IMG/VR virus record: IMGVR_UViG_3300045988_170760 | Location: 32,001-96,000 of that record | Reading direction: 5' to 3' (one strand) | Origin: a virus | Length of the DNA: 64,000 bases | Shown here: positions 14,872-15,537 of the stretch, piece by piece | Numbering within the stretch: the stretch's first letter is position 1 | How the letters are laid out: every line of letters starts with the position of its first letter | Made by a program: the position numbers and the translations under genes | Notes under the pieces: generated by a model | Told to the model about the DNA's origin: nothing | What the model saw: the letters and a program-made list of their open reading frames with translations, nothing else | The model's database searches: none

Positions 14872-14983
14872 TTTAGAAACCTTCTACACCTATTGGGAGA
14901 GAAGGGGTTTCAACCCCTTGCTCATTACCATATTATGGATAGAGATATAGCGGAGTAGAGCAGTGGTAGCTCGTCTGGTTCAT

Positions 14984-15491
14984 ATTTAATGTTACAAAGT
15001 GGAATTATTAACTAGGAGAGTGGTCATATATTATCTTTATTTAATAAGTGTCAGATAAAGGGAATGAAGTGTGAGTTAGAGTGTATTGTAAAATTTATAG
15101 AAAATGGTTTTATAGTATCTATACCATATGGAAATACAAGTAGATATGATTTATTGATAGATGCTGGAAATAATAAATATTTTAGAATACAATGTAAAAA
15201 TGCACATCAAAAAGAAAATGGAAGTTATGTTATTCAGACAGCAAATAAACAATATACTTCAACATCAAGAAATATAAAACATTATACAGAAGAACAAATA
15301 GATTTTATATGTTCTATTGTTGAAAATCAATTAGTTGTTATACCTGTAAAATTAATAAAAGGATGTAAATCAAAAATTTTTCGTAGTAAAGAATTTCCAC
15401 CATTAAATAACAGTTGTATATCAACTTGTAATTGGATAGAAGATTATACTATAGAAAACCAAATATTACCACTTTTGTAAAGAAGAGTAAG
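14984..15491 (+). mobile_element. intervening sequence in tRNA(CAU); probable ORF-containing group I intron
   Basis: The upstream exon ends in U and the insert ends in G. GUGGA at 14999-15003 can pair with exon UUCAU, including a U-G wobble at the splice site. The core was not resolved by eye. Confidence 0.55.
15064..15480 (+). CDS. PD-(D/E)XK homing endonuclease, I-Ssp6803I-like
   Basis: 138 aa with AAGGGA upstream. GFIVSIPYGNTSRYDLLID...YFRIQCK matches the PD-(D/E)XK pattern of the tRNA-intron endonuclease family. Confidence 0.6.
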   Translation: MKCELECIVKFIENGFIVSIPYGNTSRYDLLIDAGNNKYFRIQCKNAHQKENGSYVIQTANKQYTSTSRNIKHYTEEQIDFICSIVENQLVVIPVKLIKGCKSKIFRSKEFPPLNNSCISTCNWIEDYTIENQILPLL

Positions 15492-15537
15492 AACCAGAAG
15501 GTCAATGGTTCAAATCCATTCTCCGCTACCATAATAT

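Follow-up and report, generated by a model that had tools for sequence, protein, structure and literature searches.

The textbook view holds that tRNA introns of bacteria and phages are self-splicing group I, rarely group II, introns. Protein-catalysed tRNA splicing is regarded as an archaeal and eukaryotic trait and, to our knowledge, bacteria are not known to possess a tRNA splicing endonuclease. A phage tRNA(CAU) gene that is interrupted in its anticodon loop by an endonuclease-encoding insert raises the question of what kind of intron this is and how it might be removed. The gene lies in a 64,000-nt stretch of viral DNA (positions 32,001 to 96,000 of IMG/VR record IMGVR_UViG_3300045988_170760), hereafter called the window. 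A first-pass annotation had described the locus as a split tRNA gene with features fitting group I rules, and had also raised, as speculation, a non-canonical splicing pathway based on the phage's own RNA repair enzymes.

The gene was not detected by ARAGORN without intron mode. With intron mode (-i), an interrupted tRNA-Met(cat) with intron (36,508) was recovered at exactly 14949-15531, and the joined exons (14949-14983 and 15492-15531) form a 75-nt tRNA(CAU) with a perfect cloverleaf and an encoded CCA, so that the split gene reported before is real. The predicted tRNA has A11:U24 as well as G30-C40 and G31-C39 (GG/CC at the base of the anticodon stem), features by which it is initiator-like; the parallel to the tRNA-fMet target in Synechocystis is therefore closer than first stated. 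As annotated, the last base of exon 1 is U (14983) and that of the insert is G (15491). Because A14984 equals A15492, the insert boundary can be slid by 1 nt; it was set between positions 36 and 37 by relatives with unambiguous junctions (L005 and Enterococcus phage EFP01), which together with ARAGORN -i support the insertion point originally proposed. Interrupted tRNAs of this kind escape annotation pipelines. In GenBank, no tRNA-Asn is annotated for EFP01, and ARAGORN intron mode gave a wrong anticodon in several cases.

An empty allele of the gene was located by scanning with the neighbouring tRNA-Pro. Phage contig IMGVR_UViG_3300045988_167160 (L079), from a phage of 99.5% identity, is ~100% identical to the window over 2.1 kb upstream and 0.9 kb downstream, and holds the same tRNA uninterrupted, with A38C as the sole difference; given such near-identical flanks, the split tRNA of the window is not due to chance. 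A first pattern search with the joined exons had returned unrelated high-GC phages only, the empty allele being missed because of C38. The second case involves a cultured phage. EFP01 carries a related insert of 463 nt in tRNA-Asn, which is intact in 29 Schiekviruses (iF6 and 28 others), and the iF6 tRNA is 100% identical to exons 1 and 2 of EFP01 joined at 36/37. This identity had been predicted beforehand from the pairing rule described below, contrary to ARAGORN's call. Empty-site confirmation of 36/37 thus covers the Met (window) and Asn (EFP01) types, and for the Pro, Asp, Ser and Lys types the assignment was our choice. Joining of the exons always gives a canonical 7-nt loop, the cognate anticodon and a proper base at position 37. 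In L026, homologous junctions would yield U37 and those of ARAGORN lie at 37/38; this is possibly a decaying copy.

Table 1. Positions in the window of the interrupted tRNA gene, its insert and the candidate RNA repair enzymes.
Feature	Position	Strand	Basis
tRNA(CAU) exon 1, positions 1-36, 3' end = anticodon CAU	14949..14983	+	ARAGORN -i; identical to 5' part of the uninterrupted L079 tRNA
508-nt mobile insert (intron), between tRNA positions 36 and 37	14984..15491	+	ARAGORN -i; precisely missing from near-identical L079
Helix Pa, 5' strand AUUU, pairs with GAGU 15485-15488	14984..14987	+	Covariation in relatives
4x4 internal loop, 5' side AAUG, facing AGAA 15481-15484	14988..14991	+	Fold; semi-conserved in Met-type inserts only
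Helix Pb, 5' strand UUACAAAGUGG, pairs with 15469-15480; includes GUGG	14992..15002	+	Covariation; MFE and centroid folds
Shine-Dalgarno-like AGGAG, upstream of endonuclease ORF	15014..15018	+	Read from sequence
138-aa I-Ssp6803I-family PD-(D/E)XK homing endonuclease (predicted)	15064..15480	+	Pfam PF11645; 2OST sequence and fold match
Helix Pb, 3' strand CCACUUUUGUAA, overlapping final ORF codons and stop codon	15469..15480	+	Covariation; fold
4x4 internal loop, 3' side AGAA	15481..15484	+	Fold
Helix Pa, 3' strand GAGU	15485..15488	+	Covariation
'Anti-anticodon' AAG	15489..15491	+	Pairing across five tRNA identities
tRNA(CAU) exon 2, positions 37-76, including encoded CCA	15492..15531	+	ARAGORN -i; L079 comparison; rod pairing
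T4 Rnl1-like RNA ligase, candidate sealing enzyme	6822..7928	+	Pfam RNA_lig_T4_1 E 3e-11; phrog_562 E 1e-51
Polynucleotide kinase (AAA_33) + HD phosphohydrolase fusion, candidate end-healing enzyme	8108..9040	+	AAA_33 E 2e-20; HD E 8e-6; phrog_505

The 138-aa ORF of the insert contains the motifs YDLLID and RIQCK, from which a PD-(D/E)XK endonuclease had been proposed. Its translation matched PF11645 with 63.2 bits (E 3.5e-17; curated cut-off 26.1), a domain that was found in 107/107 homologues, and a PDB sequence match aligned its YDL...QCK to YDL...QVK of 2OST. The predicted catalytic residues E4, D29, Q43 and K45 were invariant in 25 aligned sequences. An AF2 model of the protein (pLDDT 87.9) had 2OST_A as best Foldseek match (E 9e-8, TM 0.61-0.65, rmsd 1.9 Å over 97 columns), followed by Hjc and EcoRV, and the closest EndA fold match was insignificant (2ohc, E 0.48). 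By profile and modelled fold, the ORF product is a PD-(D/E)XK homing endonuclease of the I-Ssp6803I family, so cleavage of uninterrupted tRNA genes is the most likely way in which the element spreads. The reading frame is open from 15016 with an in-frame ATA at 15028, and the ORF of relatives begins ~12 codons further upstream with a conserved N-terminal extension, LFNExQIKG. Given this upstream start, the non-coding RNA of the window insert is probably shorter than the 91 nt counted in the first-pass annotation.

Homologues of PDDEXK_5 formed 107 protein clusters at 90% identity; one cluster was indexed in 121 assembly-collection blocks, and 24 contigs were read. The intron family occurs in six tRNA identities and in gut, rumen and cultured Enterococcus phages. 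No description of PDDEXK_5 genes within phage tRNAs was found in the literature searched. The insert is 95% identical between phages with far more diverged flanks, and appears from these comparisons to move horizontally; intact exons may accordingly reflect recent invasion only. Judged by its gene content and empty alleles, the 508-nt insert is a mobile homing-endonuclease element that interrupts an initiator-like phage tRNA(CAU) gene within its anticodon loop.

The group I assignment of the first-pass annotation did not withstand closer analysis. In sensitive Rfam scans, a match to Intron_gpI (RF00028) at E<=10 was absent from window positions 14700-15900, from the Pro-type insert of L029 and from a second Met-type insert (L060), and the same scan recovered, with 47.7 bits and E 8e-11, a genuine group I intron that a related phage (L004) carries in its tRNA-Leu(UAA). 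A pooled 39.6-kb scan, which missed even this L004 intron, was too insensitive and was excluded as evidence. The ORF starts at about nt 30-55 of the insert and stops 1-21 nt short of its 3' end, with only 1 nt between stop codon and 3' junction in many relatives, and thus leaves no room for a group I core of ~200 nt. Variability at synonymous sites of the ORF was 0.17-0.53 and roughly flat, with no long constrained block. The sequence GUGGA, which had been taken as a guide for exon UUCAU, can be drawn in that role, but GUGG (14999-15002) covaries with CCAC (15469-15472) in helix Pb, and unrelated sequence takes its place in relatives. Under the 36/37 assignment, exon 1 ends in G in tRNA-Pro, C in tRNA-Asp and U in tRNA-Ser. 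The 3' base of the insert is G in the window and all Met-type inserts; it is C in Asp and Ser types under the same assignment, and unambiguously C in EFP01.

Other catalytic RNAs were considered as well. In an Rfam scan, no known small self-cleaving ribozyme matched inside the window insert or the L060 insert. AGAA of the internal loop resembles loop A of the hairpin ribozyme; this reading was rejected on inspection, since the facing strand has no essential G+1, loop B is lacking, and the loop is missing in other tRNA types. Pattern scans of IMG/VR for ORF-less Met-type mini-introns yielded one chance match and, in a further scan, one known locus plus one chance match; their power was low, as few family members occur there. 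The insert is thus, as far as covariance models and layout can tell, an intron without a group I core. Self-splicing by a core hidden in the ORF, or by an undescribed small ribozyme built from the structure described below, would agree with the U and G at the Met-type junctions and with the true group I introns in neighbouring tRNA-Leu genes of related phages. In Synechocystis, moreover, the homologous endonuclease is carried by a group I intron of 655 nt that occupies the same type of site (PMC1995217). We nevertheless regard self-splicing as very improbable in view of the negative covariance-model and ribozyme scans, the non-coding space of ~50-90 nt without long synonymous constraint, the guide that belongs to Pb, and inserts elsewhere that follow G36 or C36 and end in C. 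In addition, no common nucleotide motif was found among the Met, Pro, Asp, Ser, Lys and Asn inserts.

What these inserts do share is a fold. About 30 related inserts from the six tRNA types all fold as a rod, which in transcript folds is continuous and stacked on the anticodon stem. The anticodon is paired with the last three bases of the insert, and the bases just before these three are paired with the insert's 5' end; both junctions thus fall within one helix. In the window (insert bases counted + from the 5' end and - from the 3' end), the pairs are U33-A37, C34-G(-1), U36-A(-3) and +1 to +4 with -4 to -7 (helix Pa), with an A35xA(-2) mismatch. Pa is followed by a small internal loop and then by the closing helix Pb, which encloses the ORF as terminal loop in MFE and centroid folds. 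Rod and closing helix together measure ~25-30 bp.

Covariation gives strong support for the rod at the level of aligned sequences. Among Met-type inserts, 92.5% of cells were paired vs 71.7 +/- 1.4 in shuffles, and the covariation score was 0.60 vs 0.21, with slid controls at <=0.14. Across five tRNA identities, counting new pairs only, 83.3% vs 54.3 were paired and the score was 0.79 vs 0.23. Pairs 34:-1, 36:-3 and +1:-4 were formed in 20/20 sequences of five tRNA identities, the first two with changes on both sides across these identities. The Pa strands of relatives read GUUU/GAAC, AUCG/CGAU, AUCU/AGAU, AUGC/GCGU and AUCA/UGAU, and in Pb all six scored pairs (6/6) had changed on both sides among 21 sequences. 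MFE folds reproduced the rod with z = -6.6. G.U pairs are abundant, which indicates pairing of RNA rather than of DNA. The rod is retained in a tRNA-Lys gene around a 156-nt ORF remnant. A 57-nt insert in the second tRNA-Pro of L029 has no rod fold.

In this fold, the two junctions face opposing strands of a single helix and are offset by 3 bp, with the polarity of a 3' overhang and symmetric about position 35. Position 35:-2 is non-Watson-Crick in 17/20 sequences (12 unpaired and 5 G.U), and tRNA-Pro retains G37 in a U.G pair, though A would pair better, its insert ending in CUG rather than CCA. Both observations fit a constraint from tRNA function and cutting, not from helix stability alone. 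A bulge-helix-bulge motif could not be constructed, and no pairing of exon UCAU with the 3' part of the insert could be found that gives a 4-bp central helix; the helix that contains both junctions is continuous, has no more than one mismatch at its centre and lacks the two 3-nt bulges.

The presence of a homing enzyme and the failure to find a ribozyme suggest removal of the intron by proteins. The best reading is a mobile intron that is removed by protein cutting and RNA ligation, to which we assign a probability of roughly 0.5. A two-fold symmetric protein nuclease would cut both strands at the junctions, after which the anticodon stem would keep the two tRNA halves joined, nicked between positions 36 and 37. 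Sealing of the nick would fall to an RNA ligase, here possibly the phage's own T4 Rnl1-like enzyme, and the Pnk-HD protein would heal the ends if these carry 2',3'-cyclic phosphate and 5'-OH. The evidence therefore favours the direction of the route through Pnk-HD and RNA ligase that the first-pass annotation had raised, with these enzymes as candidates for sealing and for healing of the ends. Two candidates for the nuclease are a host double-strand RNase and the endonuclease that the element encodes, for which the RNA duplex would imitate the DNA target. Against protein cutting, we know of no double-stranded RNA nuclease with a 3-nt 3' stagger, and of no PD-(D/E)XK homing enzyme that cleaves RNA duplexes. 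Pfam scans of 40 window ORFs revealed no further candidate splicing nuclease and no tRNA_int_endo match. The ORF downstream of the tRNAs encodes an SbcD/Mre11-like exonuclease.

In a stronger form of this reading, which we consider unlikely, the PD-(D/E)XK enzyme has two jobs and cuts both the DNA of the empty tRNA gene and the precursor RNA at both junctions. The rod would then be an RNA imitation of the pseudo-palindromic DNA target, matching it in its dyad at position 35 and in the stagger of its 3' overhangs, and the resulting 5'-P/3'-OH ends would be sealed by an Rnl1-type ligase. The overhang that I-Ssp6803I leaves on DNA is 3 nt long. For PD-(D/E)XK homing enzymes, cleavage across the minor groove with 3' overhangs as products is documented (PMC2175346).

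In another sub-variant of protein cutting, the nuclease would be host RNase III (or Mini-III), the ligase would join the halves, and the homing enzyme would have no role on RNA. The model for this is provided by rRNA intervening sequences, in which an extended stem, sometimes with a distal ORF, stands in for a hairpin loop and is cut by a double-strand RNase. The insert shares this architecture, with a long stem in place of the hairpin loop and the ORF in the distal part, and its length of paired RNA suits the enzyme. RNase III is ubiquitous, and its 5'-P/3'-OH products are sealed directly by Rnl1-type ligases. It leaves 2-nt 3' overhangs, however, and restoration of the 7-nt loop needs a stagger of 3 nt; it is also rarely precise to the nucleotide in diverse sequences, and here six insert types have no sequence in common. 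The rRNA model differs in that the cut fragments stay unjoined, while the anticodon loop of a tRNA has to be continuous. We regard cutting by RNase III as quite improbable.

The distribution of ligases bears on the sealing step. In L060/L061 and L065, an RNA ligase gene was found less than 10 kb away from the intron, and none was found within that distance in L058, L062 and L063. In the EFP01 genome, no homologue was detected with four phage RNA ligase or two Pnk queries, so a phage ligase is not universal among intron carriers.

The latter finding also speaks for the main rival of protein-based removal, namely that no splicing takes place, which we regard as doubtful. A selfish endonuclease gene would here have destroyed a dispensable phage tRNA and retained it as a scaffold only: the rod would extend the anticodon stem and keep a tRNA-like fold, RNase P and RNase Z would excise the chimera from the transcript of the tRNA array, and the endonuclease mRNA would gain stability from the tRNA body, a natural 'tRNA scaffold'. 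The tRNA genes of phages are accessory, and EFP01 is a viable phage whose tRNA-Asn is interrupted, the gene being intact in 29 relatives. As the insert is highly conserved despite diverged flanks, exon integrity needs no selection after insertion; in L065 and L052 the exons have decayed beside an intact ORF; and free-standing copies of the endonuclease gene adjoin intact tRNAs in L058 and phage My1 (My1_056). A scaffold would also accord with the placement of the ORF, which occupies the terminal loop of an RNA with a tRNA-like fold. Under selection for stability alone, Watson-Crick pairs would be expected, but the mismatch or wobble at 35:-2 is conserved, and tRNA-Pro keeps its U.G pair at G37 with the corresponding insert end. 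In tRNA-Lys, rod and intact exons persist around the remnant, where no endonuclease mRNA is left. Finally, the insert is always placed such that joining restores loop, anticodon and base 37.

Archaeal bulge-helix-bulge introns are spliced by proteins, and some carry LAGLIDADG homing endonuclease genes. The phage insert resembles them as a mobile endonuclease gene within an intron without ribozyme, in intron-exon pairing that offers two symmetric sites to a protein and, as proposed here, in joining by an RNA ligase. It differs in that its rod has neither 3-nt bulges nor a 4-bp central helix, the sites being 3 bp apart, in its location at 36/37 instead of 37/38, in its bacterial hosts, and in that no EndA homologue was present among the 40 window ORFs scanned. 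With the Synechocystis system it shares the endonuclease family PF11645, with 2OST as best match in sequence and fold, a pseudo-palindromic anticodon stem-loop of an initiator-type tRNA(CAU) as target, and insertion in the anticodon loop adjoining CAU. The intron in tRNA-fMet of Synechocystis PCC 6803 is a 655-nt self-splicing group I ribozyme with a core of ~200 nt (PMC1995217), unlike the phage insert of 508 nt, which is essentially all ORF, has no detectable core and forms an anticodon-pairing rod. 'Enigmatic' tRNA introns that Rfam does not classify were described in Lak megaphages (Devoto et al. 2019, PMC6784885). Like these, the inserts studied here occur in tRNA genes of gut phages, are Rfam-unclassifiable and vary in presence or absence between related phages, but the Lak paper (PMC6784885) reports no endonuclease ORF, structure or mechanism. 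T4 SegB is encoded by a free-standing homing endonuclease gene in a phage tRNA cluster (PMC13096335). SegB, My1_056 and the L058 gene have in common with the window gene their association with phage tRNA arrays, and PDDEXK_5 genes also occur free-standing; the window gene, by contrast, lies inside a tRNA and has structured ends adapted to the anticodon.

Taken as a whole, the family looks like a mobile tRNA intron without ribozyme whose ends are tailored to the anticodon, and EFP01 offers a cultured system usable for experiments. If the intron is not spliced, the locus would be a selfish mRNA with a tRNA as its natural scaffold, likewise a new kind of finding. If it is spliced, an enzyme-dependent route of tRNA splicing exists in viruses that infect bacteria, T4-type RNA repair enzymes may serve a second role as splicing ligases, and the 'enigmatic' tRNA introns of megaphages obtain a testable model. 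Should the endonuclease have both jobs, the element would be a self-contained, protein-only splicing system of bacterial viruses and a living analogue of the proposed PD-(D/E)XK origin of the tRNA splicing endonuclease.

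ARAGORN in default mode called only a tRNA-Pro and a tRNA-Thr gene around the locus. In intron mode it recovered the split tRNA(CAU) gene described in the first-pass annotation, with a 508-nt insert immediately 3' of the anticodon. Once joined, the exons fold into a faultless 75-nt cloverleaf with encoded CCA. The tRNA is initiator-like (A11:U24, G30-C40/G31-C39, TPsiCAAAU loop), and its anticodon arm is nearly identical to that of E. coli tRNA-fMet; many relatives show a C1xA72 mismatch. Insertion between positions 36 and 37 was confirmed by the near-identical phage contig L079 (IMGVR_UViG_3300045988_167160; ~100% identity over 2.1 kb upstream and 0.9 kb downstream), where the same tRNA is uninterrupted and differs only by the lack of the 508-nt insert and by A38C. 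The window originates from a human-gut phage contig of roughly 118 kb (L008, ORTQ01000088). Other products encoded there are a portal protein, a terminase-like protein, an amidase, baseplate and tail proteins, a T4 Rnl1-like RNA ligase, a Pnk-HD enzyme and a YonO-type RNA polymerase. The eukaryotic-type RdRP family (PF05183) is matched by a 919-aa protein, probably a single-subunit DNA-dependent RNA polymerase of the YonO/crAss-like kind.

The 138-aa ORF of the insert is a new member of a known protein family, in agreement with the PD-(D/E)XK endonuclease recognized earlier: it matched Pfam PDDEXK_5 (63.2 bits, E 3.5e-17), its top PDB sequence match was I-Ssp6803I (2OST), and its AlphaFold model (pLDDT 87.9) superposed on 2OST (Foldseek E 9e-8, TM 0.61-0.65), followed by Hjc resolvases and EcoRV. 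E4, D29, Q43 and K45 are invariant across 25 homologues. In relatives the ORF starts about 12 codons further upstream, with LFNExQIKG. The corresponding frame in the window is open from 15016, behind AGGAG at 15014, and lacks ATG, GTG and TTG codons, so translation begins either at ATG 15064 or at a non-canonical codon, for example ATA 15028. Endonuclease ORFs of the Met-type inserts in three contigs (L003, L023 and L069) carry in-frame TAG at conserved glutamine positions (five in L069), which points to decoding of TAG as Gln and thus to predicted recoded genomes in these phages.

A group I intron had been proposed for the insert. A sensitive Rfam scan of 14700-15900 detected no Intron_gpI or self-cleaving ribozyme at E<=10, and likewise none in a second Met-type and one Pro-type insert, while the tRNA-Leu(UAA) intron of the related phage L004, scanned in the same way, scored 47.7 bits (E 8e-11) and has R and S elements of the classic type. 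The insert is filled by its ORF; in many relatives the stop codon is part of the conserved 3' tail GAAGAAUAAG and only 1 nt away from the junction. Synonymous variability along the ORF was 0.17-0.53 without a long constrained block (20-sequence codon alignment). The GUGG regarded as P1 guide belongs to a different, covarying helix with CCAC near the insert 3' end and is replaced in relatives (UCGGU/ACCGA, UUGG/CCAA, UUAG/CUAA and others). In other tRNAs, homologous inserts come after G36 or C36 and have C as their last base; the one in Enterococcus phage EFP01 also ends in C. The window insert is thus not a group I intron, and a cryptic ribozyme hidden inside it is very improbable. In the same phage tRNA arrays, true group I introns with ORFs occupy position 34/35 of tRNA-Leu(UAA), so that two tRNA intron classes coexist there.

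Protein and locus searches yielded 107 homologous clusters and more than 80 loci. Besides 21 distinct Met-type inserts (467-516 nt), distant relatives of the ORF occur in tRNA-Pro(UGG) (~813 nt), tRNA-Asp, class II tRNA-Ser(GCU) and, as a 156-nt insert with an ORF remnant, tRNA-Lys(UUU). Arbitrary ARAGORN splice calls were reassigned to 36/37 before folds were compared, which gave tRNA-Pro back its G37 and the class II body its Ser anticodon, and every insert then showed the same fold. In this rod, the anticodon stem is extended through 33:37, the last three insert bases pair with the anticodon (34:-1, 36:-3; 35:-2 is mostly a mismatch or wobble), and the first insert bases pair with -4, -5 and so on; beyond these, a closing helix has the ORF as its terminal loop. 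In Met-type mini-constructs (n=21) 92.5% of cells were paired (shuffles, 71.7 +/- 1.4), and the covariation score was 0.60 versus 0.21, with slid controls at <=0.14. For the new pairs only, 20 sequences of five tRNA identities gave 83.3% versus 54.3% paired and a score of 0.79 versus 0.23; pairs 34:-1, 36:-3 and +1:-4 were present in all 20, with changes on both sides. G.U pairs are frequent, which points to pairing in RNA, and thermodynamic folding also produced the rod (z = -6.6). A second tRNA-Pro(UGG) holds a 57-nt insert that resembles the Pro type in its 3' tail but lacks the rod fold.

A tblastn search of GenBank phages revealed a distant homologue, EFP01_109, in the cultured phage EFP01, which gave an independent test. 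ARAGORN called the split gene tRNA-Asp(GUC), whereas tRNA-Asn(GUU) interrupted at 36/37 was predicted from the rod rule. An uninterrupted tRNA-Asn is annotated at this locus in 29 other Schiekviruses, and that of iF6 is 100% identical to the EFP01 exons joined at 36/37. The 463-nt insert has unambiguous boundaries and C as its last base, which excludes canonical group I chemistry for this member. Annotation splits the EFP01 large terminase into four fragments with hypothetical ORFs between them; RecA and DNA polymerase are likewise fragmented, and the phage is rich in intervening elements.

The insert appears to be transferred horizontally between phages. From about 0.9-1.5 kb downstream of the tRNA cluster, identity to L079 drops from ~100% to 76-88% (window 16400-20100), which marks a recombination boundary fairly near the insertion site. 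Every interrupted tRNA(CAU) gene has A38, while uninterrupted copies adjoining or allelic to split ones have C38 (loop UUCAUAC), which may be a cleavage-resistant target variant. Free-standing PDDEXK_5 genes abut intact tRNAs: one lies directly downstream of a C38 tRNA(CAU), and My1_056 of Pectobacterium phage My1 shares 7 nt with the start of tRNA-Ile. In two decayed copies the endonuclease ORF is intact. Such decay and mobility, the dispensability of phage tRNAs, and the lack of a detectable RNA ligase or Pnk homologue in EFP01 (four phage RNA ligase and two Pnk queries) would suit the strongest rival explanation, namely that no splicing occurs and the rod merely maintains a tRNA-like scaffold around a selfish mRNA. 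However, the helix shows conserved imperfect pairing at its dyad centre, G37 is kept along with non-optimal wobble pairs, an ORF remnant is still surrounded by rod and exons, and the placement of the inserts always gives back a canonical loop on joining.

Coordinates of features in the window and in compared phage or metagenome contigs (L numbers)
Feature	Location	Remark
Macro-domain protein	window 5659-6159	~6-9 kb upstream of tRNAs
T4 Rnl1-like RNA ligase	window 6822-7928	~6-9 kb upstream of tRNAs
Kinase-HD (Pnk-like)	window 8108-9040	~6-9 kb upstream of tRNAs
919-aa protein	window 11381-14140	PF05183
Split tRNA(CAU)	window 14949-15531	exons 14949-14983, 15492-15531
tRNA-Pro	window 15538-15614	
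tRNA-Thr	window 15664-15738	
Uninterrupted tRNA(CAU), C38	L079 reverse-complement 5647-5721	
Uninterrupted tRNA(CAU), C38	L009:2776-2848; L036:153-229; L058:9864-9933	
EFP01 tRNA-Asn(GUU)	L081:1402-1937 = KY549443.1 105242-105777	unannotated; 463-nt insert with EFP01_109 (PDDEXK_5)
EFP01 terL region	L083:37903-42653	
Free-standing PDDEXK_5	L058:10001-10420; L080:1453-1854	L080, phage My1
tRNA-Lys(UUU), 156-nt insert	L009:1491-1720	also L010, L011, L013; remnant of longer endonuclease ORF; perfect 13-bp rod kept
tRNA-Pro(UGG), 57-nt insert	L029:611-741	
Decayed copy	L065:9730-10290	truncated tRNA exons
Decayed copy	L052:1918-2457	Lachnospiraceae MAG; conserved insert ends deleted
Group I introns, tRNA-Leu(UAA)	L004:856-1045; L069:8261-9332	L004, Rfam 47.7 bits
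HDV-like ribozyme	L060:10495-10552	F. prausnitzii type; 30.2 bits, E 0.002, under gathering score
GOLLD RNA	L029:1113-1573	101 bits, under gathering score
OLE-like RNA	L005:3844-4082	105.6 bits
tmRNA	L005:2547-2986	
drum RNA	L053:2700-2820	

The element is a mobile endonuclease-bearing insert without a ribozyme core, and its conserved rod places one junction on each strand of a single helix, with an offset of 3 bp, 3'-overhang polarity and symmetry about position 35. All functional statements on the insert, the endonuclease and splicing are computational. A two-fold symmetric protein would cut both rod strands, and an RNA ligase would then seal the 36/37 nick of the tRNA halves. T4 Rnl1 is the textbook enzyme for sealing such a nick, and Pnkp heals the ends where required. 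Both candidate repair enzymes are carried by the window phage, in a putative RNA repair module together with the Macro-domain protein. Apart from the helix, the PDDEXK_5 protein is the sole component common to all six insert types. Such enzymes cleave across the minor groove to leave 3' overhangs (PMC2175346) and bind a pseudo-palindromic 23-bp target as tetramers (PMC3384342). The rod mirrors the dyad and cut polarity of this DNA target, which motivates, without proving, a second role of the homing enzyme as splicing nuclease; this is considered possible but unlikely. RNase III-type processing is the other candidate, but its stagger is 2 nt.

Further RNAs were matched in the phage tRNA arrays (GOLLD, OLE-like, tmRNA and drum). 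The HDV-like match begins 1 nt past the 3' end of a split tRNA-Met, a placement that would allow cutting of the tRNA trailer.

The carrier in the window differs from the Synechocystis group I intron, from bulge-helix-bulge introns and from rRNA intervening sequences; it may be related to the 'enigmatic' tRNA introns of Lak phages (PMC6784885). No description of a PDDEXK_5 gene inside a phage tRNA gene was found in the literature searched. On computational grounds, the insert is best read as a mobile endonuclease-bearing intron without a ribozyme, a class for which only archaeal examples have been known so far. Should the homing enzyme also be the splicing enzyme, this would be categorically new.
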